DNA of 32,000 nucleotides from Archaeoglobus fulgidus DSM 4304 (GTDB lineage Archaea > Halobacteriota > Archaeoglobi > Archaeoglobales > Archaeoglobaceae): assembly GCF_000008665.1 (NCBI RefSeq), contig NC_000917.1, positions 780,001-812,000 of the forward strand, written 5' to 3'. The position numbers were made by a program, and so were the translations under genes. The notes beneath the pieces were generated by a model. It searched no databases. It was not told the DNA's origin and worked only from the letters and a program-made list of their open reading frames with translations. Of the stretch, positions 1,323-24,481 are shown in pieces. How positions within the stretch are numbered: position 1 is the stretch's first letter; each line of letters opens with the position of its first letter.

Positions 1323-2447
1323 TCAGCTTCCCACCTCCAGAATCTCGCTCTCCTCTACCGCTTTCCTTTCAAGTTCCTCAAAACCCTCGTATTTAACGAC
1401 GTCTTCAATTTTCGCCCTTGTCTCGGGATGCTGGGCAACCATGAAGCTGCAGCAGTCCTCGTAGGGAAGAATGGAAATCTCGTAAGTTTCAATTCTCTTT
1501 GCAATGGCAACAATCTCCTCCTTGTCCATTCCTATCAGTGGTGGAAGAACCGCAAGCTTTGAGGCTGAGTAAATGACATTGATGTTGTCGAGCGTCTGGC
1601 TCGCAACCTGAGAGAGGCTGTCTCCCGTGACTACGGCCTTACATCCCTCCTTTTCTGCAATAAGGTTGGCCATTCTCATCATGCTCCTTCTGTAAACAAC
1701 CATCCTCAGCTTGGGCGGAACCCTGTTGATTATCTCAAACTGCACCTCCTTAAACGGCACCATGTAAAGCTTAATTTTTCCTTGGTACTCAGCAAGCTTC
1801 TCAGCAAGCATCCTTATCTTCTCCCTCACCTTTGGGGAGTGCATGGTCTGGTTGAAGAAGTGGACAGCCACCACCTCACAGCCCCTCTTCATCGCCATAA
1901 ATGCAGCAACGGGACTGTCTATCCCTCCTGAAATGAGAGCAACAACTTTTCCGGCAACACCAACCGGCAGGCCACCAATCCCCTCGTACCTCTTCGAGTA
2001 AACGTAAGCCTCCTTTTCGCAGATTTCAATCCAAACTGTTACGTCAGGATTCGTTAAATCGACCTTCTTTCCCGTCTTTTCCACAATGAACGCTCCAACT
2101 TTTCTGTTGACTTCAACGGAGTTCATTGGGAAGTTTTTGTTGCTTCTCGAAGTATCAACCTTGAAGGTTTTGAAGCTTTCGGGCAGCACACTTAAAGCTG
2201 CCTTTTTAATTGATTCAAGGTTGAGTTCGGTTTTAAACCCAACACCAAAATACCTTATTCCTGGAATTTTCGCCATCCTGCTTTCCAGACCTTCTCTGTA
2301 CTCCACCTCTATTCTCCCGTATTTTCTTCTAACCCTCATGCCGGTGGCCCTTTTTATTGCCTCAATCAACTTCCTCTCGAAAAACTCCCTGTTTTTGCCC
2401 TTGATACCAATCTCACCGTAGTGAACCACTGCCACCTTTTCCATCAT
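1323..2447 (-). CDS. thiI: tRNA 4-thiouridine synthase / sulfur-carrier adenylyltransferase ThiI (THUMP + PP-loop, no rhodanese domain)
   Basis: 374 aa. N-terminal ferredoxin-like/THUMP region, PP-loop motif [10 protein letters not shown], then a conserved C-terminal ThiI-like region. Confidence 0.9.
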
Positions 2448-2509
2448 TCAATGTTGTTGAGGCGATATTTAAGCGAAAGGATTATAACTGAGAAGAAACA
2501 TGATTGGGT

Positions 2510-2671
2510 ATGGCAAAGTATCAGTGCACGATTTGCGGATACGTTTACGATGAAGCTGAAGGGGATCCGGAAAGTGACGTTTCTCCAGGTACGAAATGGG
2601 AAGACTTGCCTGATGACTGGGTCTGTCCTGTTTGCGGTGCGACAAAGGACCAGTTCGAGAAAATCGAGTAA
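2510..2671 (+). CDS. rub: Rubredoxin (53 aa; absent from the ORF track because it is under 60 aa)
   Basis: Translation is [53 protein letters not shown]. It has both CxxCG knuckles and the conserved W/DDW core. ATG at 2510, TAA at 2669-2671. Confidence 0.93.
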
Positions 2672-2739
2672 TTTCTCCTATTTTTAAGCTAATTTATCAA
2701 ACAAAATCGTTAAATATTTTCTCCACAATACTCACTATA

Positions 2740-4137
2740 ATGAACTTAATCATTTCAAACGAGGAATCGCATTACCTTCCGGGCTGGAAAATAATTCTGA
2801 GCATGGAGGAATTCAGCAAAGTTCTGCATTTCAGCATAGAAGAGGCTAAAATCAACCTTGAAATCGACTGGGCTGAAGCTGCTGAACTGAGTGCTGAGAT
2901 AAAGAGGAAAAATCCTGCTTGCAAAGTCGAGTTCTTTGAGTCAGATAAGGGCGAGTTTTCCTTTCTTAAAAGTTTTCTTGAGAGAATAAAGTATCCTGCA
3001 GTGATCGGAAGGTTTGTGGGTGAAGAACCCGTAATTGTCTACGCCAATCAGTCCTTTGTAGACTTGTTCGTCAATAATGGAAGTTTTATTGTGGGCGATT
3101 ACCTCGATAAACTTGTTGTACCACCTGAGAATCATGAAGAGGCCTTAGATTTGAACAGAAGAGTTAAAGAGGGTGAAGTGGTGTTTGTTGAGGTTAAGAG
3201 AGCTACAAAGACTGGAGAGAGATATTTTGAGCTAACCGCCCTCCCCTTTTCCAGAAAGTATGCAGTTGCTATTTACAGAGACATCACAAAGAGAAGAGAG
3301 GCCATGCAGAAAATAGTTGAGTCTGAGAGGAAGTATAGGGGTGTTTTCGACACATCCTTCGAGCCCATGGTCCTTCTCGATGGTAGTTTCAGCATTATTG
3401 AGGTCAATAAGGCTTTTGAAGAGGAGTTTGGTGTAAGTGGTGAAGAGCTTAAAGGGAAAAATATACGGGAAATTCTGGATATCGACCCCTCACTTGAAGA
3501 ATCCGAGATTGAAGCTTTGGTCGGGGGAAGAAGAAAAATAATGGTTTATCGAATAAAAAAGATTAACTCTGAGATTCTGCTCAGCATTAAAGACATTACT
3601 GAGTTTGAGGCAACAAGCAGACTGCTCAGGGCAATTACCTACGCCAACGACCTTATTGTCAGAGTGGATGACAGAGAGGAGCTTTTTGAGCAATCCGTTA
3701 AGCTTCTGGCCGACATAGGCAAGGAAAGCTCCTGCTGGATAGGCATGCTTTCAAATGGAGAAATAACAAAGGTTTACTGCGAGGGTTGCTGCTGTGCAGT
3801 TGAGATTACAACTTATCCAAAATGCTTTGAGGAGGTTCTCAGGAAGAAGAAAGCCATCATTGTCTCTGCAGAGGATAGAGACGAGGACTGCCCCTTTTAC
3901 ACCAAGAAGCCAAGGCTTTGCTGCATCATTGCTCCTCTCATAATAAACGGTGATGTGATAGGCTTTAACGTTCTGCACTCTCCAACTGAGTTCTCTGAGG
4001 AAATGAAGGAGTTTTTTGAGTCCGTAACCAACAACATAGCAATAAAGGCCAAAGCAATTGAAGCCGATAAAGCTAAGAAAATTGCCTTCAAGCAAATTGA
4101 GGACAACATCATCAAGCTTGCGGGGAATCAACAATGA
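2740..4137 (+). CDS. PAS + GAF-like sensor protein with no kinase domain and a Cys-rich C-terminal module
   Basis: The ORF is open from 2632, but that extension overlaps rubredoxin. The ATG at 2740 sits about 25 nt after TATA-like ttaaatatttt. It has a PAS-like block (RKYRGVFDTSFEPMVLLDGSFSIIEVNKAFEEEFG). The C-terminal GAF-like region holds 9 Cys in 64 codons. Its stop overlaps the next gene's start (ATGA at 4134-4137). Confidence 0.75.
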   Translation: MNLIISNEESHYLPGWKIILSMEEFSKVLHFSIEEAKINLEIDWAEAAELSAEIKRKNPACKVEFFESDKGEFSFLKSFLERIKYPAVIGRFVGEEPVIVYANQSFVDLFVNNGSFIVGDYLDKLVVPPENHEEALDLNRRVKEGEVVFVEVKRATKTGERYFELTALPFSRKYAVAIYRDITKRREAMQKIVESERKYRGVFDTSFEPMVLLDGSFSIIEVNKAFEEEFGVSGEELKGKNIREILDIDPSLEESEIEALVGGRRKIMVYRIKKINSEILLSIKDITEFEATSRLLRAITYANDLIVRVDDREELFEQSVKLLADIGKESSCWIGMLSNGEITKVYCEGCCCAVEITTYPKCFEEVLRKKKAIIVSAEDRDEDCPFYTKKPRLCCIIAPLIINGDVIGFNVLHSPTEFSEEMKEFFESVTNNIAIKAKAIEADKAKKIAFKQIEDNIIKLAGNQQ

Positions 4138-5441
4138 AGCAGGATGAGCAGGAGATTGAGTGGTATAAGGCATTGGTGGATAATTCGTCCGAAATACTGA
4201 TGATCATCGACGAATATGGAAACATAAAGTACATTTCTCCTTCTGTGAAGGATATTGCGGGATATGACAGTGATTCGCTCATAGGAGTTAATACCTTCAT
4301 TTTTGCCCATCCCGACGAGGTTGACTACATATTTTCCAAACTTCAGTTTTTGCTCGAAAACCCAGGAGTTCCAGAGTTCATCGAGTTCAGGGCTTTGCAT
4401 AAAGACGGGCACTGGGTGGAAGTGGAAGCAATGGGCAAAAACCTCCTTCACACGCCAGTTAAGGGAATTGTAGTTACAATGAGGGACGTGAGCAAAATCA
4501 AAAAGCTCGAAAAAGAGCTTAGAAGGCTGGCAGAGAACGTTCCCTTTGGAATTATTGTTTTGGGTGATGGTGGGATTATATACTCCAACAAAGAGGCCGA
4601 AAGGATTCTCGGATATAGCAGGGAAGATTTTCCGTCTTTGGAGGAAATCTCATCCAAAATTGAAGGAGAGAAAGGCAGCTTCATTTCAAAGATGAAGAGA
4701 AAGGATGGTAAGGAAATCTGGCTCAGTGTGAGATACATTGAGACGGAGTGGATGGGAGAGAAAGCCTACCTTGTAGCCTTCTCAGACATAACCGAAAACC
4801 TGTTACTCCAGAAAAGGCTTGAGAGCAGAACAACACTCCTCAAAACCATCAACAGAATTCTCCGCCACGATTTGATAAACGACTTAACTGCAGCCCTTGG
4901 AATGCTTGAAGTTTACAGGGATTTAAGGGAGGAGAGCCTTCTTTCTACAGTTGAAAGAAGATTGAATGATGCTGTAAAGCTGATAAAGAGGATGAGAGAG
5001 CTTGAAGTTCTCTCTGAAGATGGAAAGGAGCTGAAGGAGATTAGAATCTCCGAAATTGTTGGGGAATTGAGGGGAAAATACGACATTCAGATATCACTTC
5101 AGGGAGATGCTGTGGTGGAGGCTGATGATGCCCTTTTCTCTGTTTTCGACAACCTGATAAGAAATGCTGTCGTCCACGGAAACGCCTCCCTTGTTGAGAT
5201 TAAATGCACTCAGAAAGATGGACTTTGCGAGATAGTGGTTGAGGACGACGGCTCTGGAATTCCTGAGGACAAGCTGCAGAAGGTGTTTGAGAGAGGTGTA
5301 AAATTCGGAAAGGGTGGGGCGATGGGTCTGGGGCTGTTCTTGGTTAAAAAGCTAATTGAAAGGTATGGTGGTAATGTCAGGGCTGAGCCCTCCTCCAAGG
5401 GTGCAAGGTTCGTTATACAGCTTAGGGGTAGAGTTACTTAA
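4134..5441 (+). CDS. Sensor histidine kinase (two PAS domains, H-box, HATPase_c)
   Basis: 435 aa. PAS blocks, H-box ILRHDLINDL, N-box DNLIRNAVVHG, G1 VEDDGSGIP, G2 GGAMGLGLFLVKKLIERYGG. Confidence 0.9.
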   Translation: MKQDEQEIEWYKALVDNSSEILMIIDEYGNIKYISPSVKDIAGYDSDSLIGVNTFIFAHPDEVDYIFSKLQFLLENPGVPEFIEFRALHKDGHWVEVEAMGKNLLHTPVKGIVVTMRDVSKIKKLEKELRRLAENVPFGIIVLGDGGIIYSNKEAERILGYSREDFPSLEEISSKIEGEKGSFISKMKRKDGKEIWLSVRYIETEWMGEKAYLVAFSDITENLLLQKRLESRTTLLKTINRILRHDLINDLTAALGMLEVYRDLREESLLSTVERRLNDAVKLIKRMRELEVLSEDGKELKEIRISEIVGELRGKYDIQISLQGDAVVEADDALFSVFDNLIRNAVVHGNASLVEIKCTQKDGLCEIVVEDDGSGIPEDKLQKVFERGVKFGKGGAMGLGLFLVKKLIERYGGNVRAEPSSKGARFVIQLRGRVT

Positions 5442-6766: not shown

Positions 6767-8210
6767 TGATATCCACCCCCAGCTTTTTGGCCTCATCGTA
6801 AAGCATTTTAAGCCCCATTTTAACCTCTCCCCTAAGCTTCCTTAACAAAGTTTTCCTGTCTTTCAGATCGCTTTTCCTCGCTTTTATCATTCTCTCCACC
6901 TCAGCCTTGCTCGTCCCTCCCAGATTTCCCCTGTTCTCCACGACCTTCTCAACGTCCAGAGCTTCAAGCACGTCTTCATCTCTGACGTTTATTTCAACAC
7001 CAAGTTCTTTAGCTGCCGAATTAACATCGGATGCTGTAGGCCTCTCCAGCTCCTTTGCAGCCAACCTCCCAACAATGCGATGCGCCATCCTGAAGGGAAC
7101 GCCGTACTTCATTACGAGCATGTCTGCAAGCTCGGTTGCGGTGGCAAACCCCTTTGAGGCTTTTCTTTCCGTAATCTCAGGGTTGAACTTTATTTTACCC
7201 ATCATTGAGGCAAAAACCTCCACAGCCAAGTGCGTTCTTTTCAGAGATTCGTAGAGCAGGGGATTCATCTCCTGAAAGTCCCTGTTGTAGCTGAAGGGTG
7301 TCGCCTTGTAAATCATCATTGCTGACGTTAAATTCCCCGCAATTTTTCCCGCATTGGCTCTCAAAAGTTCTGCAATGTCAGGATTCTTTTTCTGAGGCAT
7401 GATGGAGGACGTTGACGAAAACTCATCAGGTAAGGTGATGAAGCCGAATTCTGACGAAAACAGGACAATTTCCTCGGCAATTCTGCTGATTGAAAGCATT
7501 GCCTCGGCCGCCACAAAAATGGACTCAATAACGAAGTCCCTCGACGCCACTGCATCCTCGCTGTGCTCAACGACTCCGTCAAATCCCAGCAACCTTGCAG
7601 CGTAGACTCTGTCAAGGCTGTATCCCGTGGACGCGAAGGCAGCGGAACCGAGAGGTGATTTGTTCACTCTCCTGAACGCCTCTATTGCCCTCTCAAAGTC
7701 TCTTGAGAGCATATCGTGATAAGCGAGAAGGTGATGCGACAGCCTCGTTGGCTGCGCATACTGGAGATGCGTGAATCCGGGCATCAGAAAGTGGGACTTC
7801 TCGGCCTTCTTAATCAAAACATCCAGCGCGTTGAGGATTGCCTCTGCGAGATTCAGCAGGTGGTCTCTCGCGAACATTCTCAGGCAGGTTGCAACCTCAT
7901 CGTTTCTGCTCCTTCCCGTGTGCATTTTTGCACCGTGAGGGGTTATCTTCGTCACCTCTGCCTCAATGGCTTCGTGAACGTCTTCGTAGGGCCAATCTTC
8001 CCTAAATCCAGAATCCTTTACCTTTTTCAGAGCCAAAATTATCTCCTTTGCTTCTTCTTCGCTTAAGTAGCCTCCCTTCTTGAGAGTCAGGACGTGGGCA
8101 ACGTCAACGAGAATATCGTACAGGAAGATATTTTTATCGTGCTCGATTGAAGAGGAGAGCTTCAGAGCCTTTGGGTCCATGCCTTTCTTCATCCTGCTTT
8201 CTCTCAGCAT
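6759..8210 (-). CDS. argH: Argininosuccinate lyase
   Basis: 483 aa. Fumarate-lyase signature SSIMPQKKNPD, and an N-terminus that aligns with the ArgH pattern (SSSIEHD ... DVAHVLTL). Confidence 0.92.
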   Translation of the reverse strand: MLRESRMKKGMDPKALKLSSSIEHDKNIFLYDILVDVAHVLTLKKGGYLSEEEAKEIILALKKVKDSGFREDWPYEDVHEAIEAEVTKITPHGAKMHTGRSRNDEVATCLRMFARDHLLNLAEAILNALDVLIKKAEKSHFLMPGFTHLQYAQPTRLSHHLLAYHDMLSRDFERAIEAFRRVNKSPLGSAAFASTGYSLDRVYAARLLGFDGVVEHSEDAVASRDFVIESIFVAAEAMLSISRIAEEIVLFSSEFGFITLPDEFSSTSSIMPQKKNPDIAELLRANAGKIAGNLTSAMMIYKATPFSYNRDFQEMNPLLYESLKRTHLAVEVFASMMGKIKFNPEITERKASKGFATATELADMLVMKYGVPFRMAHRIVGRLAAKELERPTASDVNSAAKELGVEINVRDEDVLEALDVEKVVENRGNLGGTSKAEVERMIKARKSDLKDRKTLLRKLRGEVKMGLKMLYDEAKKLGVDINV

Positions 8211-8281
8211 GCACTCAGTTTGTGCAGAGGTTATTAATTCTTACCGCAAATGTATTTATGTTTTGGAGATGATGGCAGAGC

Positions 8282-8563
8282 ATGAAGTACAGAATAGTCA
8301 GGATAGAGCTTAAAAGTGACGATGAAGTTACGCTTTACCTGAAATCGGCCAGCAGGAAGCCGGGCGTTATGGCCAAAGCCGATTTCAGCGATCCGGTCAA
8401 GGTAATCGAATTCGGACTGCAGATGGGGATGGACCTGGCGAGGAGGATAGAGGAACTCATGCAGTTCGACGCCTTTCTCACCGTTCCCTACGATTACTAC
8501 AGCATGAACGAGTTGAAGGTCGGAGACGTGGTTGAGGTTGAAGTGAGGCTGGCTGAGAGGTAG
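8282..8563 (+). CDS. Hypothetical small protein (93 aa)
   Basis: The ORF has host-like composition and is divergent from argH. It has no recognisable motif. The antisense ORF 8234-8680 looks spurious. Confidence 0.5.
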
Positions 8564-8570
8564 GCGAAAG

Positions 8571-8582
8571 TGATATATATCT
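8571..8582 (+). promoter_or_regulatory. TATA box for tRNA-Glu
   Basis: tgatatatatct lies about 24-30 nt upstream of the mature tRNA 5' end at 8605, which is typical archaeal spacing. Confidence 0.5.
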
Positions 8583-8604
8583 ACTCTCTTTAAGTCAATC
8601 CTAA

Positions 8605-8695
8605 GCTCCGGTGGTGTAGCCCGGCCAATCATTCCGGCCTTTCGAGGTTTCGCCGAAGAGAGCCGGCGACCCGGGTTCAAATCCCGGCCGGAGCA
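8605..8695 (+). tRNA. tRNA-Glu (anticodon UUC) with a 16-nt intron at the canonical 37/38 position (about 8645-8660)
   Basis: Acceptor GCTCCGG/CCGGAGC plus discriminator A. T-arm CCGGG-TTCAAAT-CCCGG. Anticodon stem CCGGC/GCCGG is interrupted: CTTTCG | AGGTTTCGCCGAAGAG | A. Removing 16 nt gives a 75-nt canonical tRNA. Confidence 0.85.
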
Positions 8696-8701
8696 TTATC
8701 C

Positions 8702-8727
8702 TTTTGTGCTTGGAAACTCACACAAAA
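8702..8727. terminator. Inverted repeat between convergent tRNA-Glu and the AbfD-like gene
   Basis: TTTTGTG (8702-8708) and CACAAAA (8721-8727) form a 7-bp stem with T/A runs on both sides. Archaeal termination mainly uses oligo-T, so the role is tentative. Confidence 0.35.
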
Positions 8728-8729
8728 AA

Positions 8730-10115
8730 TTAAAAGTCAATGCAGTTCTTGACAGCCTCCTCTCTGCTGCTCAAGTCCATCAAAAACCGCAGGGTAATGA
8801 GGGCGGCCGTTGGTGAGCCTCCGCCGTGGAATGCTCCCACCAGGTGGGATGAAGTAGTCCAAAATTCGATGAACTTCACGATTTTAAGTCTCTGCTCCGC
8901 GGTAAATTTCTCGCTTGCCCGGAGGAAGTCCCCAACCATTTCAAGGTCAAATTCTGAAGGAGAGGTGCCTATAATCCCTCCCGAAATGTCTATCAGGTTC
9001 ATCAGAGCTTTGGCGAACCCCTCTACACCTATAACCTTCCCGGAATTTGCCATCTGAAAGTTGGGCAACCAGCAGCCGTTGTGATTTGCCCCCTTCACCG
9101 CAGCACCGACGGAGATTGCAAAGGCACCCTCGCTGACTGCAACCATCTCAGCCACTTTCTGCTGCAAAGCTGAAACGTTCTCAAGACCGCTCGTCTTTAG
9201 CATTAGACTCGCTGCACCGGCCATCGAGTCGATAAACCCTGCCTTGCACGCTGCCCCCACACACCTGTGAGAGGGTGCGAAGTAGCTGACCACGTCCCTC
9301 GCCGCCTTCAAGTCCTCAAAAACGAAAACCCTTTCCCACGGTATGAAGACGTCGTCAAACACAACCATGCAGGTTGTTCTGTCTCCGTACTTATTTCCTG
9401 CCTCAAACTTTCCCCCTTCGCGCTGCTTCGCCTGAATTCCAGTGTTCTGAAGGATATACTTTATCCCCTCGTCCTCGGGCATGGCGGCAAAAACGACAGC
9501 GAATTCCTCCTCTCCTGGACGGAAGGTCTGAGTTGGTAAGACGAAGTTGACGTCTGCCGCAAAGGCACCGCTCTGGCAAATCTTAGCTCCTCTGACCACT
9601 ATCCCATCTTCTCTCTTCTCAACCACACGAAGGTACTTGTCCTTTTGCTCCGAGGGCCTCTTTCCCCTATCCCCCTTAACATCCGTCAGCGCGGCGGTGC
9701 AGGCATAATCCTTCTTCTGGATCTCTTTGAGCAGTTCCAAAAACCTCCTGTGATAGTCCGTTCCCTCCCTCTCGTCAAGCGCCTTTGTTGCCGGGTAAAT
9801 GGCGTTAATTGCATCACAACCGGTGCATCGGTAGTTGCAGGTTGCAAGCTTTAGGCTTAGCTCTCTCTGATAATCATATCTCGCAATCAGGTCTTCAAAA
9901 GTTTGGTTAACGTAGTTCAGCCTGTTTACCTTCTCTCCAACAAGCTCGGAGTGTGGAGCGTACTTTTCCGCTATGCTGTAGGTATAGGCCATTGCCTCAA
10001 CCGTCGGCCTTATATTCGGATGGTTTACGAAATCCTCAATTTTCTTTCCGAGAACGTAGATATCCCTTTTGTATTCACCCAACCTCTCTATGTATTCCTC
10101 CGGCTTTAAAAGCAT
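8730..10115 (-). CDS. 4-hydroxybutyryl-CoA dehydratase / vinylacetyl-CoA isomerase family protein (AbfD/HpaB superfamily)
   Basis: 461 aa. Blocks such as YLRVVEKREDGIVVRGAKICQSG and VVFDDVFIPWERVF match my recollection of clostridial AbfD. Candidate cluster ligands are CNYRCTGC and SHRCVGAACK. Confidence 0.8.
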   Translation of the reverse strand: MLLKPEEYIERLGEYKRDIYVLGKKIEDFVNHPNIRPTVEAMAYTYSIAEKYAPHSELVGEKVNRLNYVNQTFEDLIARYDYQRELSLKLATCNYRCTGCDAINAIYPATKALDEREGTDYHRRFLELLKEIQKKDYACTAALTDVKGDRGKRPSEQKDKYLRVVEKREDGIVVRGAKICQSGAFAADVNFVLPTQTFRPGEEEFAVVFAAMPEDEGIKYILQNTGIQAKQREGGKFEAGNKYGDRTTCMVVFDDVFIPWERVFVFEDLKAARDVVSYFAPSHRCVGAACKAGFIDSMAGAASLMLKTSGLENVSALQQKVAEMVAVSEGAFAISVGAAVKGANHNGCWLPNFQMANSGKVIGVEGFAKALMNLIDISGGIIGTSPSEFDLEMVGDFLRASEKFTAEQRLKIVKFIEFWTTSSHLVGAFHGGGSPTAALITLRFLMDLSSREEAVKNCIDF

Positions 10116-13756: not shown

Positions 13757-14689
13757 ATGGTGGACCCAAGCTTCTTGGCCTCGCTGCTGGCTTCCTCGAT
13801 TAGGGCCGGTACACCACTGCTTTACGCAACGCTGGGTGAGATTCTTACCGAGAGAAGCGGAATTCTTAACCTCGGACTTGAGGGGATAATGATTACCGGA
13901 GCCTTTACCGGATTTGCCGTAAGCCTCGCGACCGGCAGCCCATGGCTCGGAGTTCTCTGCGGTGGGCTTGCCGGAATGGCTCTCGCCTTCGTGCATGCGT
14001 TCTTTTCCATAACGCTGAGAGCCAACCAGTCCATAACCGGATTGATGCTGGTTCTTCTCGGTCTCGGCATAACGGGATTTCTGGGGAGAAACTACATAGG
14101 GGAAGTTGCGTTCTACATCGATCCAGTAAAGATTCCCGTCTTGTCAGACATTCCTTACATCGGAGAAATTCTTTTCAGTCACGATCCGCTGGCTTATCTC
14201 GCAATAATTCTCGCAGCAATTATGTGGTTCATCCTTTTCAGGACGAGGTACGGTTTGGAGATAATTGCAGCCGGAGAGAAACCGGAGGCTGCTGACAGCA
14301 TGGGTGTTAACGTTGACAGAGTGAGGTACCTGAGCACGCTTTTAGGAGGCTTTCTCGTTGGGATTGGAGGGGCGTATCTCAGCCTCGCCTACGCGAAGCT
14401 GTGGACGGAGGGGATGACCGCAGGAAGGGGATGGATCTGCTTAGCTTTAGTTATCTTCAGCGGATGGATGCCGCAGAGAGCAGTTTTTGGTGCCTACCTC
14501 TTCGGAGGTCTTGACGTGCTGTCCTTCAAGCTCCAGGCGACGGGAATAGAGGTGTCGTACCACCTCATGAAAATGGTCCCCTACGTCGTCACGATAGTAG
14601 TGCTGCTGTTCAGTGTCGTGAGAAAAAGGGCTGCCTTTGGAGCGCCTGCAGCACTTGGAATACCGTATGTCAGGGGGAGGAAAGAGTAA
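13757..14689 (+). CDS. ABC transporter permease (second subunit)
   Basis: 310-aa polytopic hydrophobic protein that starts 1 nt after the previous stop. Confidence 0.85.
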   Translation: MVDPSFLASLLASSIRAGTPLLYATLGEILTERSGILNLGLEGIMITGAFTGFAVSLATGSPWLGVLCGGLAGMALAFVHAFFSITLRANQSITGLMLVLLGLGITGFLGRNYIGEVAFYIDPVKIPVLSDIPYIGEILFSHDPLAYLAIILAAIMWFILFRTRYGLEIIAAGEKPEAADSMGVNVDRVRYLSTLLGGFLVGIGGAYLSLAYAKLWTEGMTAGRGWICLALVIFSGWMPQRAVFGAYLFGGLDVLSFKLQATGIEVSYHLMKMVPYVVTIVVLLFSVVRKRAAFGAPAALGIPYVRGRKE

Positions 14690-14720
14690 AGTTTATTTCT
14701 TTTGGCATTTGGCAGAAGAT

Positions 14721-15860
14721 ATGAAGGCAAAGGTTCTGGTTTTTATCGCTCTAGCGGTATTAGCTGCTGGGCTGTTTGCAGGGTGTGCAGGAGAAGAGAA
14801 GACTCCTACAACCACGCAAACCACAACTACTGAAACTGCATCTGAGAAAAAGCTTAGCGCTGCCTTCGTTTACGTAAGCCCGATTGGGGATGCGGGGTGG
14901 ACTTACAGCCACGACTTAGGGAGGCAGTATATTGAGAGGGTTTACGGAGTGAAAACCGCCTACGCAGAGAACGTTGCCGAAGGTGGTGACGATGAGAGGG
15001 TTATCAGAGAGTTTGCAGAGCAGGGCTATGACGTGATATTCACAACGTCCTTCGGTTTCATGGATGCCACGATAACCGTTGCGAAGGACTTCCCCAACAC
15101 GATATTCATGCACTGCAGCGGTTACAAGACCGCGAAGAACGTTGGAACCTACTTTGGCAGAATGTACCAGGCCAGGTATCTGAGCGGTCTCGTGGCAGGA
15201 GCAATGACAAAAACCAACAAGATAGGTTACGTTGCCGCAGTTCCGATTCCGGAGGTCATCAGAGGAATAAACGCCTTCGCTCTCGGTGTCAAGAAGGTGA
15301 ATCCGGATGCCAAGATTTACGTTGTTTGGACGGGGACTTGGTATGACCCAGCTAAAGAGAAGGAGGCGGCGCTCAGCCTTATCGATGAGGGGTGTGACGT
15401 TATAGCCCAGCATCAGGATTCTCCAGCAGCGCAGCAGGCTGCAGAGGAGAGGGGGGTTTACTCTATAGGCTACCACAGCGACATGTCCAAGTTCGCTCCT
15501 CACGCGCACCTCACCTCTGCCGTTTGGAACTGGAGCGTGATTTACTCCTACGTCATAGAGCAGGTGATGCAGGGAACCTGGAAGAGCGAGCAGATCTGGT
15601 GGGGAATAGACAAGGGCGTTGTTGGTCTAACACCTCTTAGCGACGTAGTACCTGAAGACGTGAAGAAGATGGTAGAGGAGGAGAAGCAGAAGTATCTGAA
15701 CGGGGAGGTTCCGGAGCAGTACCCGTTCGTAGGGCCAATCTACGACCAGCAGGGCAACCTCGTTAAGGCAGAAGGAGAGGTAATGACCGACAAGGAACTC
15801 CTCTCGATGAACTTCTTCGTGGACAACGTTGTTGGAGAAATTCCTTCAGCCTCTGAATAA
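14721..15860 (+). CDS. BMP-family (basic membrane protein / PnrA-like) substrate-binding lipoprotein
   Basis: I prefer the ATG at 14721, which gives MKAKVLVFIALAVLAAGLFAGCAG (signal peptide plus lipobox Cys). A Thr-rich linker follows, then a periplasmic-binding fold with BMP-like blocks (FVYVSPIGDAGWTYSHD, GYVAAVPIPEV). Confidence 0.85.
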   Translation: MKAKVLVFIALAVLAAGLFAGCAGEEKTPTTTQTTTTETASEKKLSAAFVYVSPIGDAGWTYSHDLGRQYIERVYGVKTAYAENVAEGGDDERVIREFAEQGYDVIFTTSFGFMDATITVAKDFPNTIFMHCSGYKTAKNVGTYFGRMYQARYLSGLVAGAMTKTNKIGYVAAVPIPEVIRGINAFALGVKKVNPDAKIYVVWTGTWYDPAKEKEAALSLIDEGCDVIAQHQDSPAAQQAAEERGVYSIGYHSDMSKFAPHAHLTSAVWNWSVIYSYVIEQVMQGTWKSEQIWWGIDKGVVGLTPLSDVVPEDVKKMVEEEKQKYLNGEVPEQYPFVGPIYDQQGNLVKAEGEVMTDKELLSMNFFVDNVVGEIPSASE

Positions 15861-20067: not shown

Positions 20068-20396
20068 GGGTAATAGTATCCTGAATTATTTCATTACTAA
20101 ACACCCACTTCACGTGAGAAAGCCAAGAACAAGAAAATAAGGTGGATAATCTGACAGCTCAACAAGGGAGCCCAGTAAAGGAGATATCTGCTGATGAAAG
20201 TAACACCAAGAAGCAATATGAGGAATTAGGTAAAATTCAAGACGTTACTGGTACAATTATGTTAAACATCAAATGAGCCTGAATTTTGATGAATGGAGAC
20301 TCCATATCAGGTTTTTCTCAGGAAGCTGAGAGTGTTTGAGTACACAAAGGGTTGGTTGTTTGAGGAGTGAGATTATTTCGGGATATCACATAAATG

Positions 20397-21054
20397 GGAC
20401 ATGTCCCCATTACTAAAACAAACAAGTACCAAAAAATAACACCAAAATATGCAATCAGTAAAGAATATTGTTAAGGAGCTTAAAGTCTTTTCGAAATTAA
20501 AGTTTTGGGAGTAGCAACCTATATCCAGACATCATCGGTGAGAAGAACTGCTAAAATTCTGTCAGAGTTGCATCCGGTTTCCAAATCATGAGTACATCGC
20601 TGGATAAAGAAGTTTGAGGAGAAATTTCCCATCTCAGCGGAGAAAAAAGGAATCTGATAGCGATGGATGAGACAGTGGTTAAGGCGAACAGGAAGCATTA
20701 CTACGTCTATGCTGCGATAGATGTGGAGAGGAATGAGCTTATTCTTATGAGAGTCTATACGACAAGGAATTACCTGACCACAAAGTCCTTTATCAAGGAA
20801 GTGCTTGAGTATTGCGAGAATAAACCAAAATTTGTGGTGGATAAGGCTCCCTGGCTGGTTCAGTTTGGAGAGTCTTGGATTGGAATACGAACACCAAACC
20901 TTTCGGTGAGAGAAGTCTGGTCGAATCAGTTTTCTCTTCGCTGAAGCAGCGAATTAAGATCTTTTTCTGTTCGATTAGCTGCCATAATCTCTGTAAGCTG
21001 TTTATGCTCTATTATAACAGGTATAGGTGGTGTTTGTGTTAAGTGGACACGTCC
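20397..21054 (+). mobile_element. IS6-family-like insertion sequence, inactivated, with 8-bp target-site duplication
   Basis: Imperfect terminal inverted repeats: GGGACATGTCCCCATTA (left) versus the reverse complement of the right end, GGACGTGTCCACTTA. An exact 8-bp direct repeat CATAAATG lies immediately outside both ends (20389-20396 and 21055-21062). An 8-bp TSD is the IS6-family hallmark. Confidence 0.75.
20449..21042 (+). pseudogene. IS6-like DDE transposase pseudogene (at least 3 stops or frameshifts)
   Basis: The central ORF reads DETVVKANRKHYYVYAAIDVERNE ... FVVDKAPW, the IS6 DDE signature. The N-terminal HTH part (RRTAKILSELHPVSKS*VHRWIKKFEE) is broken by stops. The C-terminal part (TFGERSLVESVFSSLKQRIK) is readable only after a 1-nt frameshift. 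Confidence 0.8.
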
Positions 21055-21194
21055 CATAAATGCACAAAAATTTATATCAAGGAAAAAGTAATTCCTGCGT
21101 GGGTTGAGATATAGTTTAGCTACAAACAGAGAATTCGAAAAAAATACTCAAAGAGCTCTTGCCTAGGGTGGAGATAGAACTGACCAACTATCAT

Positions 21195-21206
21195 AAATCT
21201 TATATC
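21195..21206 (+). promoter_or_regulatory. Candidate TATA box for the two-gene cassette
   Basis: aaatcttatatc lies about 35 nt upstream of ATG 21239. The resulting short leader carries a strong SD, GGAGGTG (21224-21230). Confidence 0.35.
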
Positions 21207-21238
21207 TGGGATAGTTAACAAAGAAGGAGGTGGAGATC

Positions 21239-22339
21239 ATGTTCCCCATCAAGCCACCAACAACCGAGCGTTTTGAGTTATCGGCAGAGTTTATAGACTA
21301 CCTAGATAGGGTCATAAAAAGTAAAGAGATGCCGACCTCACTCAAGGCGATTTTCACAATTTCCAATTTTAAGAGCGCTGATGAATTTCTCTATGATCTA
21401 AAGAAATCTGGATTTAAGCTAATATCTGACTACGGATGCGTTTTTTATCTCACAAAAAAATCTGAGTATGGAGATGTAAGATATCTTGCTCTTTTCACTG
21501 AAAATCACAATCCAATCTTTTTCACCTTAGCAACAAAAACAAAAGAGATACCACCGACTTTACTTGAATATTTAAACAAATCCCCCTATATATCTAATTT
21601 ATGGATAAGCTTAACTAAAATGGACGAATTAGTCGAGTCTCTTAAAAAAGAATATTCAGACCAGATTATGGGAACATACTTTACAGGGACGTACAGTCCA
21701 TTTTTCAAAAGAAAAGCGTTAATACGTCCGAACATAGAGAGATTTGTCGAATATAGGGGTGACGATGCAATTCAAATTTATGAGGAATACAAAAAATACT
21801 ATGGAATTCTTCCGAGGGTTTTTGAATTCAATCTGATTGGATACGGAACGTATAGACTAGACTACAGAGGGATTTTAGTTATAAAAGCTAGATCGTCTTT
21901 TAACTTTATTTATCAGCTTATGGATAGTATTGTTTCTGAAGTTGAAAAGTCTAAACAAAAAATTACCAGAGCCCGTGTCTTGGACAAATTCATGAAAACA
22001 AAACGCAAAGAATTCAAAATAAACATCAAAATACCTTGGTCCATAAAGCTAACTGAGCAGCTTGAATGCGTAAAATTTGATGACTTCGTTAAAGTTTTGG
22101 AACCTGAATGGCAATTTTTACCATTAGACATTGATATTAGTGAGAATGCAGAAAATTCAGAATTTTTGGATTTCAGTTATTTTAGAGTTATAGACCTAAT
22201 AAAACCAAGTGAATTCTCTGTTGTTTATAATAACAAAAATCTAAAGATTTACCCTTCTGATAAGTTAGATCTCGGCTCCTCTCTTAGGTTCTTCCAGTCT
22301 GTAAGGTCATCACTCGATCCGAGTGCATACCTAACTTGA
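21239..22339 (+). CDS. Orphan protein (366 aa), no recognisable domain; first gene of the AT-rich cassette
   Basis: Long intact ORF in about 30% GC DNA. The ATG at 21239 lies 8 nt after GGAGGTG, and I consider the track's GTG at 21230 less likely. I found no P-loop, SAM-binding, nuclease or TM motif by eye. Confidence 0.75.
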   Translation: MFPIKPPTTERFELSAEFIDYLDRVIKSKEMPTSLKAIFTISNFKSADEFLYDLKKSGFKLISDYGCVFYLTKKSEYGDVRYLALFTENHNPIFFTLATKTKEIPPTLLEYLNKSPYISNLWISLTKMDELVESLKKEYSDQIMGTYFTGTYSPFFKRKALIRPNIERFVEYRGDDAIQIYEEYKKYYGILPRVFEFNLIGYGTYRLDYRGILVIKARSSFNFIYQLMDSIVSEVEKSKQKITRARVLDKFMKTKRKEFKINIKIPWSIKLTEQLECVKFDDFVKVLEPEWQFLPLDIDISENAENSEFLDFSYFRVIDLIKPSEFSVVYNNKNLKIYPSDKLDLGSSLRFFQSVRSSLDPSAYLT

Positions 22340-22345
22340 TCGAAG

Positions 22346-23443
22346 ATGGCGAAATATGATAGAGATTGGTTCGCCAATAGTATTAAAAAAATAGCGGAAA
22401 AGAAGTTAGAAGAAGCTAGAAGACATGTAGAAGTGCAGCTTGATTCCGCAATAACTTTAGATAAACGCCATTGTTCGCTTGTTAGACATTGTAAATCTCT
22501 TTTGATTAACTTATATGAAAACACTCCCATAGGGTATGACATTATTATGCGTGAGCCGTTGATTGACCTATCTCTGAAAAAGAATGATATTTCTGTTTTC
22601 GATCTGGTAGCAATAAATTCCACAAACGGAATAGCTTCACTAATCGAATGTAAAACTGGCCATAATTCAAAATACATGTTGAAGAGTTTTGCTAAAAAGA
22701 TTGTGTCATTCAATGAACACTGCAGCCACATTGAAAAAATGTTAGGGATAAATATTAAAGACTCTGAATTTATTTTGTGCGTGGAATCGATTAATACTGG
22801 AGGAGTTTTGCAGTCTGTAAACGACCACACCAATAAAAAGCGAAGAGGACAAAGTTCAGCATTCAATGAATTAAGTGAGGACAAAATTAACAGGATAATA
22901 ATTTGGTCTGTTCTTGAAGGCGAAAACAAAATAGTTAAAGTGTATGGCAATCACCTTGACACAAATTTCGATAGGATCATGAGAGGTCCTCCCCTATTTG
23001 ATTACCTCTCGGATTTGGATTTAGAATATTGTTCACAACCGTGGAGGTTCATTGAAAGAGTAATTTACGAAAGAATTTTTGTAGAAAAGAAGAGATTAGA
23101 TGAAGCGAATCCTAAGGAATTTACTTACATCGAAGTCGTAAATGCGCTTGTTGATGAATTTAGTGACTTAGCTGTGGATAATTTAACATTGCGATCTATA
23201 GCCGAACAAAAAGCATCAGAAATAATAAACCATGGTATCGAATATGGGATATTTGAAGAAGTAAAGAAAAATAGATATTGCATAAAATGTAGAGGTGAGC
23301 GAATAAGCACAGTTAGAGAGAATTTAGAAAGAAAATACAGAAATAACTACATAAACAAAGAAGCCGAGAGGAAAGCTTACGAAGAAGCTAAAAAAGAAGT
23401 TAAAAGAATGCATGGAGACTTATCTAAGTTTGGCATTACTTAG
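22346..23443 (+). CDS. PD-(D/E)xK nuclease-fold protein with a probable C-terminal winged-helix region (365 aa)
   Basis: Starts 6 nt after the upstream stop. Its core reads GYDIIMRE(70) - VFD(86)LVAINSTNGIASLIE(101)CK(103)TG, the same pattern as Hjc-type resolvases and restriction endonucleases (xDLVA...hhIExK). An oligo-T run (gcattttt) follows the stop. Confidence 0.75.
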   Translation: MAKYDRDWFANSIKKIAEKKLEEARRHVEVQLDSAITLDKRHCSLVRHCKSLLINLYENTPIGYDIIMREPLIDLSLKKNDISVFDLVAINSTNGIASLIECKTGHNSKYMLKSFAKKIVSFNEHCSHIEKMLGINIKDSEFILCVESINTGGVLQSVNDHTNKKRRGQSSAFNELSEDKINRIIIWSVLEGENKIVKVYGNHLDTNFDRIMRGPPLFDYLSDLDLEYCSQPWRFIERVIYERIFVEKKRLDEANPKEFTYIEVVNALVDEFSDLAVDNLTLRSIAEQKASEIINHGIEYGIFEEVKKNRYCIKCRGERISTVRENLERKYRNNYINKEAERKAYEEAKKEVKRMHGDLSKFGIT

Positions 23444-23539
23444 CATTTTTCTCCTAACTTCAATGCTAAGTTCCTAACATCAATTCTTCAGATATTTATT
23501 TAAAAATAATTGTATTAAAACTTCTTTCCATCTTGATAC

Positions 23540-24400
23540 CAGTTCTTCAGAACTTCCACGTGAGCTTTGGCTTTTCCGCTTCGAACTTCGATTCGGGGAA
23601 GGGGAAGTATGTCTGCTCCATTGTTATGCTATTGAAACCTGTTATTCATCCTTAGTAGAAATCACACAGCTCTATTTGACGAAGCCCATCAGTGGAGCGT
23701 TGTTTTTGCTTGACGCGAGCAGTGTAACCTCTCCCCGTTATCCTATGTTATCGAAACCGCAACAGTTCTCTTCGTCCAGTCTTTTGACGGGTTTGACATT
23801 TTCAGAGTCTTTAGGTGTGAACCCCACATCCATCGACCTCAGAACCATCAACGAAGATTGCAACATCTCTAATCCTCAATTCAACTGCTCCTTCAGCCAT
23901 TTAACCGCCTCTACAAGACGATAACCAGATCCAGCACGATTTTGCTGAGCACTACGCTTAGATAGGTTGCTACCCTGCATTTCTCAGAATTCTTGCTGAC
24001 TTATCGGAGGCCTTATATCATCGTAGTTCGGAGCCTGCACCTCGTAATATCTTACCAGATTTCCATCCGCGTCAACATAACCCTCCTCATAGCTCCGAGG
24101 CTCTGTGCAACTCTGCAAACCCTCCTCGATTACGGCCTTGATCATGTTCAGACCCTGAGGTTATAAGGGGGTCTTCTGGCCTGCATGTTGGCAAGGCGGA
24201 GCTTCAGGTTGATCAGAGCGTTTTTGATCTCAGTTGCAAGATGTGTCTTCGTCCTCAGGGTGTCGACCCAGCTGCCGTCAAGACTCTTTTGTAGTTGAGA
24301 TTGCAGCCTTCCCCATCTCTCCCATGATTTGATTTGAGCTTATCGTGTTTTCCCACCTTGAACCATCTTCCTAATCTTGCTTTCCTTTAATTTTTCATAA
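23540..24400 (-). pseudogene. Unidentified broken reading frames (decayed gene or genes, or several very small ORFs)
   Basis: The minus strand gives protein-like fragments in shifting frames. Examples are ...AQIKSWERWGRLQSQLQKSLDGSWVDTLRTKTHLATEIKNALINLKLRLANMQARRPPYNLRV*, a 53-aa ORF at 24145-23984 (MIKAVIEEGLQSCTEPRSYEEGYVDADGNLVRYYEVQAPNYDDIRPPISQQEF), and MQGSNLSKRSAQQNRAGSGYRLVEAVKWLKEQLN*. No intact ORF over 60 aa exists on this strand. Confidence 0.35.
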
Positions 24401-24481
24401 TTTTCTTATTACCTTTACCGATTCCTAACCTTTACCAAACCCAATCAGGAAATTTTTAACCAGCAGTCACGAGGAAAAGAT

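Follow-up and report, generated by a model that had tools for sequence, protein, structure and literature searches.

We propose that a gene of Archaeoglobus fulgidus DSM 4304 encodes a metal-dependent DNA endonuclease that acts as the effector of an archaeal module for defense or mobile-element conflict, one made up of two genes and so far uncatalogued, and to this reading we assign a probability of about 0.6. The gene lies in a stretch of 32,000 nt (assembly GCF_000008665.1, contig NC_000917.1, positions 780,001 to 812,000), here termed the window, and is the second gene of a two-gene cassette whose first gene belongs to the AF_0896 family; the two are referred to below as gene 2 and gene 1. 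That the gene 2 protein has the fold and active site of the PD-(D/E)xK nucleases is highly probable, as indicated by several independent lines of evidence. Catalysis, and DNA as the substrate, we infer from these, and a role of the pair in defense, which is read from its genomic context, is an interpretation that we favor by a narrow margin.

A Conserved Site in a Divergent Protein Family

The gene 2 protein is rich in Lys, Glu, and Asp and contains eight copies of the pattern D-x(10-20)-[DE]-x-K, at least one copy of which is also present in 93% of 1000 shuffles of the same protein. The bare D...ExK motif is thus no evidence by itself, and the question therefore becomes one of the conservation and structural placement of the particular copy formed by D86, E101, and K103. 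A word-indexed search returned only three relatives, with 46–68% identity, in which these three residues are invariant, but so are about 130 other columns. An exhaustive hidden Markov model (HMM) search of 1.84 billion cluster representatives yielded 96 proteins at E ≤ 1e-3, most of them full length (350–395 aa), and the conservation counts given here refer to an alignment of 82 full-length members with a median pairwise identity of 21% and a mean column identity of 22%. When the word-indexed search was run with the 82-sequence profile, it brought back only five proteins; collections of phages and plasmids contained no tblastn match to gene 2, and scans of IMG/VR with three sub-alignments found no relatives. 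The haloarchaeal homologs of gene 2 were located only by way of their gene 1 partners.

The sole invariant column of this alignment is D86, and the columns conserved to at least 90% are P71 (81/82), L72, E101 (77/82), K103 (76/82), W187, and L208. Next in order are H42 (89%), H203 (87%), E141 (85%), E70 (83% Glu and 10% Asp), and C102 (82%), and H42 is invariant in a core alignment of 40 sequences (A5). D86, E101, K103, P71, and E70 are among the most conserved columns of the whole protein. The initial annotation, which was made from the DNA alone, had singled out D86, the E101-C-K103 triplet, and E70 as a possible additional acidic residue, and reading the codons shows that both the residues and their positions had been correctly assigned. 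Its expectation that D86, E101, and K103 would be retained among homologs is borne out, in that they are invariant or nearly so at 21% median identity with no sign of free variation, and E70 is likewise conserved as an acidic residue.

When four haloarchaeal and viral homologs that were located through the partner gene are added to the 82 proteins, to give a set of 86, the seven residues H42, E70, D86, E101, K103, E141, and H203 behave in an all-or-none fashion: 81 of the 86 proteins keep five to seven of them, five keep a single one, and none keeps two to four. Such joint retention or loss is most simply read as the mark of one functional site, and the protein encoded in the window carries all seven (HEDEKEH). 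The loss is found in one haloarchaeal and viral clade, in which H42, E70, E101, K103, E141, and H203 have all been replaced (the ECK triplet becoming SCE, LCE, or similar) while the protein is still full length and the partner gene is intact. Its members are HarHp1_100 of the pleolipovirus Harhisp1 (from the pair HarHp1_105/100), the homologs of a Natrialbaceae island and of a Haloarcula plasmid, and the proteins P0064 and P0104, and their homology to the family is clear from hhalign (E values of 1e-21 to 1e-23). Either this clade has an activity that is independent of the nuclease or its copies are inactive and possibly interfering, and the dead-site copies could be inactive, regulatory, or decoys. 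The conserved polar residues of the gene 1 protein (K100, T101, R163, R168, D176, E183, R350, and D360) persist where the nuclease site has been lost.

Predicted Fold and Domain Organization

An AlphaFold2 model of the gene 2 protein, built from a four-sequence alignment, has a predicted local distance difference test score (pLDDT) of 81 and a predicted template modeling score (pTM) of 0.75, and its secondary structure was assigned with DSSP. The model begins with a helix of 57 residues (3–59) that bears H42, followed by strands 64–68, 87–91, and 96–103, helix 108–133, and strand 139–147, with further strands at 184–190 and 195–200. In this model E70-P71 comes after strand 64–68, D86 immediately precedes strand 87–91, E101-C-K103 forms the end of strand 96–103, and E141 is near the start of strand 139–147. 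Block pLDDT values of the core range from 53 (residues 71–80) to 89 and are 74–89 over residues 81–150. The C-terminal half consists of a low-confidence linker (222–226), helix 232–250, strand 258–260, helices 261–271 and 279–299, a hairpin (303–313), and a final helix (320–356). The long terminal helices would probably serve in oligomerization.

Searched with Foldseek against the Protein Data Bank (PDB), the whole three-module model gave a top list made up mostly of PD-(D/E)xK enzymes, all with E ≥ 0.001, so that the list by itself is no proof. These include LmuA (9nxx), XisH (2inb/2okf), the cap-snatching endonucleases of orthobunyaviruses, DpnI, BstEII, SdaI, BamHI, a Shedu nuclease, and the restriction-like endonuclease of R2. 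Over the C-terminal part winged-helix proteins predominated, among them E2F-DP (1cf7_B, probability 0.99), the cullin WHB domain (4p5o_C, 0.87), and the Z-alpha domain of ZBP1 (2lnb, 0.82). Against predicted viral structures (BFVD) only weak matches were obtained, mostly to uncharacterized proteins.

At the level of sequence profiles the closest family is PF13588 (HSDR_N_2), an N-terminal nuclease domain related to the R subunits of type I restriction enzymes. It was matched by 22 of the 82 homologs at E ≤ 0.1 (best 2.8e-4), all of them under the gathering score of 25 bits, while each other Pfam family was matched by at most two of the 82; the number of chance matches expected at this cutoff is about eight over all families together. 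In seven of ten homologs examined the PF13588 match spans residues ~85–135, the segment that contains D...ExK. The window protein itself gave no match to PF13588. Two sequence matches in the PDB, 2ppv and CSM1, were set aside as weak and located off the catalytic segment.

The alpha-beta-beta-beta-alpha-beta nuclease core that the initial annotation had assumed, with D86 and the ExK motif placed on its strands as described there, is thus the fold that AlphaFold2 predicts. Likewise, its guess of a helical or winged-helix module near the C terminus agrees with helices 261–271 and 279–299, the hairpin that follows them, and the winged-helix matches of Foldseek, and the Lys/Glu-rich tail corresponds to the helix behind them. 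Its assignment to the Hjc and restriction-endonuclease fold holds at the superfamily level but not at the level of family, as there is no profile match to Hjc, NucS, or Mrr: the corresponding families PF01870, PF01939, and PF04471 were matched neither by the window protein in the Pfam search nor among the 25 Pfam families listed for the 82 homologs.

The Partner Gene and the Strictness of Pairing

Gene 1 starts 5 nt after a GGAGGTG sequence and its stop codon is separated from the start of gene 2 by 6 nt. In every context retrieved, an AF_0896-family gene is located directly upstream of gene 2 on the same strand. Pairing was counted with local HMMs in 72 loci, of which a metagenome scan had supplied 54, and the partner is directly upstream of 66 of the 70 gene 2 open reading frames (ORFs) that have room for it, often with a 4-nt overlap. 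The two genuine exceptions are one locus in which a DUF4277/DDE_Tnp_1 transposase takes the place of gene 1 and a HepT toxin gene follows (L037, 4246–7068), and one in which gene 1 is split into two fragments next to an intact nuclease gene (L019, 4882–5963). What look like further exceptions are either the downstream pieces of gene 2 ORFs that are split or the result of crude start-codon calls (L040). The two genes make up a strictly conserved, translationally coupled operon.

The gene 1 ORF matches phrog_24372 (1.4e-33), and homologs of its product carry the precomputed assignment PF27341 (AF_0896_M), a recent Pfam family. A model of the gene 1 protein from a five-sequence run is confident for residues 1–240 only, which are predicted to form two alpha/beta modules, and residues 241–366 are unmodeled. 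Foldseek gave weak matches only, to proteins of the TBP fold (Iml3/CENP-L at 2e-3, and TBP) and to RdgC. In PADLOC-DB 2.0.0, gene 2 matched no family at E ≤ 1 and gene 1 matched only Cas11b, at a chance level (0.0024, 15.8 bits).

Distribution of the Cassette

The pair is present in archaeal chromosomes, proviruses, a pleolipovirus, and plasmids, the family comprises ~100 clusters, and wherever the neighboring genes indicate a taxonomic origin it is archaeal. A fusellovirus-like provirus of Candidatus Mnemosynella biddleae (L001/L016, 1240–16114), with an SSV-type integrase and a VP2-like capsid protein, carries as cargo both the cassette and a convergent gene for a HEC-01A/AriA/Old-like ATPase with a 179-aa partner. 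In the pleolipovirus Harhisp1 the pair is part of the accessory region, beside RelE/CopG and the Orc1 rep gene (PMC7911831), and haloarchaeal plasmids carry it as well, among them pHLAC01 of Halorubrum lacusprofundi. A pentapeptide-repeat gene is found near the cassette both in Harhisp1 (L011, 11924–13240) and in a plasmid of Haloarcula sp. JP-L23 (L017, 4408–5874), and this part of the plasmid may derive from the integration of a related element. On the contig of a homolog with 56% identity, a tRNA-Arg(gcg) gene (L007, 71–142) is located 55 nt upstream of gene 1, which suggests integration beside a tRNA gene.

A second group of neighbors consists of defense genes. In one locus (L035/L036, 1410–13049) the cassette is embedded between HmaA (1410–4832; 1e-195) and HmaB (7122–10013; 5e-131), all on one strand and with overlapping ends, and genes embedded in Hma systems in this way were the starting point of a discovery of defense systems by 'guilt-by-embedding', in which seven of nine protected cells (bioRxiv 10.1101/2024.01.29.577857). 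An 861-aa ParA/AAA-like protein follows in this locus. Elsewhere the pair directly follows PDC-S68 (E = 0), directly precedes type I hsdR and hsdS, or comes after a type I hsdM-S fusion, and other neighbors are genes for a HepT toxin, a HerA-like ATPase, a DrmC-like PLD protein, and Schlafen/AlbA_2 proteins.

Proposed Function and Alternative Explanations

We propose that the gene 2 protein acts as a divalent-metal-dependent PD-(D/E)xK DNA endonuclease, in which D86, E101, and E70 would bind the metal together with H42, K103 would activate water, and E141 and probably H203 would assist. A role for H42 is suggested by its conservation. The winged helix would bind DNA, or choose or position the target. 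The pair, which moves as one unit between archaeal chromosomes, proviruses, a pleolipovirus, and plasmids, would most likely be a module of innate defense or mobile-element conflict. Its effector, the nuclease, would cut the DNA of invaders, and the gene 1 protein might, as a guess, either sense the invader or restrain the nuclease. In a bolder version, which we regard as doubtful, the cassette is a new, archaea-centered two-gene immune system with a His-assisted PD-(D/E)xK and winged-helix effector and a partner whose fold has not been seen in other defense systems, and the dead pairs of haloarchaeal viruses and plasmids, such as that of Harhisp1, would be decoys or dominant-negative copies directed against the host system.

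Several results weigh against the proposal of an endonuclease effector. The window protein scores below threshold with all models of Pfam, NCBIfam, PHROG, and PADLOC, and the PDB yielded no credible sequence match, whether the query was the protein alone, the profile of 82 sequences, or a core profile of 40. No structural match of gene 2 reaches an E value of 0.001, the best being 0.03 with a TM-score of ~0.26 for the whole three-module model. The clustering of H42, E141, and H203 in space with D86, E101, and K103 is one that we infer rather than see. The degenerate clade implies that, at least there, the pair works without nuclease activity. A PDB profile search, a Pfam scan of nine members, and Foldseek gave no assignment for the gene 1 protein. 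Moreover, the enrichment of the pair in defense islands is qualitative, and at least five cassettes (L010, L019, L022, L032, and L056) are found among housekeeping genes of methanogen-like archaea with no defense neighbor.

A variant that would still be a form of defense is a modification-dependent, type IV-like enzyme in which the PD-(D/E)xK domain cuts, the winged helix reads a modified base such as N6-methyladenine (6mA), and the partner modulates. The domain order of nuclease followed by winged helix is that of DpnI, which is in the Foldseek list (4kyw_A), and prokaryotic winged-helix/nuclease fusions are reported to be 6mA-dependent type IV enzymes (PMC11037411). The structural match is, however, weak (E 0.13, probability 0.16), enzymes of the DpnI type need no obligate partner whereas gene 2 is almost always paired, and the cassette often adjoins adenine methylases (type I restriction-modification and Hma), next to which a 6mA-dependent enzyme would be self-harmful unless the sequence contexts differ, so that we judge this variant unlikely. 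A little less likely still is a toxin-antitoxin or addiction module, in which a nuclease toxin and its AF_0896-family antidote together stabilize proviruses and plasmids rather than attack invaders, although such a module could still abort infection. Tight coupling with overlapping stop and start codons, the presence of the pair on plasmids and proviruses where it adjoins RelE/CopG and HepT toxins, and the stand-alone cassettes between housekeeping genes are all in keeping with it, but both proteins (~365 aa) are large for a classical type II module, and a nuclease without a partner (L037) or with a split one (L019) would not be expected if the antidote were essential, unless the nuclease is silent in these loci. 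We give slightly less credence again to a housekeeping role in mobile elements, as a site-specific nuclease or resolvase, or an accessory of replication initiation, acting with a DNA-binding partner. The adjacent Orc1-type rep gene of Harhisp1, the location inside a fusellovirus-like provirus, the weak Foldseek matches of gene 1 to TBP-fold DNA-binding proteins and RdgC, and the tRNA-Arg gene immediately upstream in one locus (L007) argue for such a role. Against it, the surroundings of many cassettes are free of other mobile-element genes, most pleolipoviruses and fuselloviruses are without the pair (by tblastn, gene 1 has a single match and gene 2 none among 50,697 phage and virus records), and a position within an Hma operon and beside restriction-modification genes fits cargo rather than core replication.

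The degenerate clade, in which the protein is still full length and paired after six site residues have been replaced, is in keeping with a non-catalytic DNA-binding or scaffold protein with a nuclease fold. We nevertheless think this improbable, in that the window protein has all seven residues and 81 of the 86 proteins keep five or more at 21% identity, as they would under selection on catalysis. Least probable is a relationship to the RNA-guided VIPR systems described in 2026. On this view the gene 1 product would correspond to Vipr, a RAMP-like protein (with RRM core, G-loop, and thumb) that is loaded with a guide RNA of tandem repeats, and the gene 2 product to the nuclease accessory (Vap) of types III and V. 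VIPR loci have two genes, long intergenic regions on either side, and accessories with winged-helix, helix-turn-helix, or nuclease domains, and they are mainly found in proviruses and viruses, including archaeal ones, with types III and V in defense islands (bioRxiv 10.64898/2026.04.26.720920). The cassette has a similar distribution, and in the window ~1 kb downstream of it is without a long ORF. However, no GGY/NN tract of period 5 was found in the window or the 72 loci, where the best candidates, with 5–7 of 9 units, equal those of shuffled sequence or are plain G-runs, and there is no array of period 5–7 with a fixed dinucleotide, no TRF array near the cassette, and no Rfam match. The flanks are not conserved among four close homologs, and no Cas5, Cas6, or Cas7 protein is among the top 50 Foldseek matches of gene 1, for which the model is confident over residues 1–240 only and the matches are weak. 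Neither the window nor the 72 loci contain the defining vrRNA, in which 9–16 YNNGG units would follow one another in tandem beside the genes, and the VIPR-like reading is not supported.

The endonuclease-effector reading matters in the first place because archaeal immunity outside CRISPR and restriction-modification is poorly charted. It turns two 'hypothetical proteins' into a testable unit with a defined site (D86, E101, K103, and H42), an obligate partner, natural dead variants in viruses, and a family whose neighbors hint at a function against viruses or plasmids. If it is true, the cassette would be an archaea-borne addition to the defense catalog and would supply a thermostable nuclease whose DNA-reading domain is a separate one. 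If the pair serves mobile elements instead, it would be a new accessory module common to fusellovirus-like and pleolipovirus-type elements. Searches of the literature for AF0896/AF0897, and a 2014 'dark matter' survey of archaea, turned up no mention of either protein.

The Cassette in Its Genomic Setting

The features discussed here are listed in Table 1. In the window the cassette is located between argS and host genes and adjoins a frameshifted transposase of the IS6/IS240 family, with which it shares an island of low GC content. A search for att-type repeats bounding this island gave only short repeats at chance level. Sequences resembling GGGACATGTCCC and GGACACGTCCC are found near the two ends of the IS6/IS240 element (at about 20396 and 21065). 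Beyond the cassette, a region of ~1 kb (23444–24480, with a host-like GC content of 45–48%) has no ORF of more than 82 aa, only short broken ones on the minus strand, and neither an Rfam match nor repeats; it may represent a decayed gene. At a distance from the cassette, ARAGORN reports a 91-nt 'tRNA-???' with an irregular anticodon loop (8605–8695, plus strand) that may be an intron-containing archaeal tRNA.

Table 1. Location of the cassette, its predicted domains and site residues, its local surroundings, and the homologs with a degenerate site (window positions unless a locus is named).
Feature	Location	Strand	Basis or remark
Gene 1, AF_0896 family, 366 aa from ATG 21239 (alternative GTG 21230)	21239..22339	+	Obligate upstream partner
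Gene 2, ORF of 365 aa	22346..23443	+	PD-(D/E)xK nuclease domain, winged helix, C-terminal helix
N-terminal long helix (residues 3–59) with PD-(D/E)xK core and sheet extension (residues 60–215), predicted	22346..22990	+	DSSP, sub-threshold PF13588, Foldseek
Winged-helix domain (residues 232–313), predicted	23039..23284	+	Model, Foldseek
Long Lys/Glu-rich C-terminal helix (residues 320–356), predicted	23303..23413	+	DSSP, pLDDT ~89
H42 (cat), on N-terminal helix, proposed metal ligand	22469..22471	+	89% His (n = 82)
E70 (gag, in GYDIIMRE), first acidic residue, followed by near-invariant P71-L72	22553..22555	+	Glu 68/82, Asp 8/82
D86 (gat, in VFDLVA), start of strand 87–91	22601..22603	+	82/82, alignment A2
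E101-C102-K103 (gaa tgt aaa, in SLIECKTG), end of strand 96–103	22646..22654	+	Glu 77/82, Cys 67/82, Lys 76/82
E141 (gaa), start of strand 139–147, further conserved acidic residue	22766..22768	+	85% Glu; Gln or Arg in degenerate clade
H203 (cac), conserved His co-varying with the site	22952..22954	+	87% His; lost with the site in degenerate clade
Low-GC island with insertion sequence (IS) remnant and cassette	20070..23600		32–40% GC against ~48–52% in flanks, composition profile
Frameshifted IS6/IS240-family transposase pseudogene, left edge of island	20519..21042	+	PF13610 (DDE_Tnp_IS240) 3.2e-9 on ORF 20663–20944; three frames
Degenerate-clade homolog of gene 2, L011 (MW344767.1)	14549–15673	-	
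Degenerate-clade homolog of gene 2, L009	11086–12231		
Degenerate-clade homolog of gene 2, L017	7068–8216		
Degenerate-clade homologs of gene 2, P0064 and P0104			

Comparison with Known Nucleases and Defense Systems

The predicted features that the gene 2 protein has in common with PF13588, the closest profile of the superfamily, are the alpha-beta-beta-beta-alpha-beta core, the Asp with which beta-2 starts, the ExK motif in beta-3, and an upstream acidic residue, but unlike HSDR_N_2 proteins it has a 57-residue N-terminal helix with a conserved His and a C-terminal winged helix, and it is not fused to a helicase or translocase. The superfamily fold and the logic of the catalytic triad are also common to Hjc, NucS/EndoMS, and Mrr, each of which differs in architecture. 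Hjc is a single domain of ~140 aa (PF01870), compared with three modules in 365 aa; NucS/EndoMS has an N-terminal half-barrel and a C-terminal nuclease (PF01939), where the N terminus of the gene 2 protein is predicted to be a single long helix; and in Mrr the winged helix is N-terminal to the nuclease (PF04471), the reverse of the order seen here. The order of N-terminal PD-(D/E)xK domain and C-terminal winged helix is that of DpnI and of the 6mA-dependent type IV fusions (PMC11037411), a likeness of architecture only. DpnI has 254 aa, acts alone, and is without long terminal helices, while gene 2 comes with its upstream partner.

The cap-snatching endonucleases of bunyaviruses and orthomyxoviruses (7ewu, 5amq) recur in the Foldseek list of gene 2. 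Their active site has the order H...D/E...PD...(D/E)xK, in which the His belongs to the first helix. The series H42...E70...D86...E101-x-K103 of the gene 2 protein parallels this order, although the cap-snatching enzymes are RNA endonucleases within viral polymerases and have no sequence relationship to gene 2.

The cassette as a whole may also be compared with one known defense system and one candidate system. Over the whole chain, Foldseek matched the gene 2 model best to the Cap4-type Lamassu effector LmuA (PDB 9nxx; E 0.03, probability 0.75, 318 aligned columns), and both LmuA and, by prediction, the gene 2 protein are nuclease effectors of ~370 aa that have a non-enzymatic or sensor partner in a defense operon; the TM-score is, however, only 0.26, gene 1 does not encode an SMC-like ATPase of the LmuB/C kind, and no Lamassu model of PADLOC is matched. 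HEC-02, which combines an ABC ATPase with a NERD-type PD-(D/E)xK nuclease (bioRxiv 10.1101/2024.01.29.577857), resembles the cassette in having two genes with a PD-(D/E)xK effector and in being embedded in Hma systems, but the partner of the cassette is not an ATPase, and no HEC or PDC model of PADLOC-DB 2.0.0, a collection that includes the Hma-embedded candidates, matched it. Gene 2 represents a family not described before within a familiar enzyme fold, and its pairing with gene 1 is a new arrangement and a credible candidate for an archaeal defense system.

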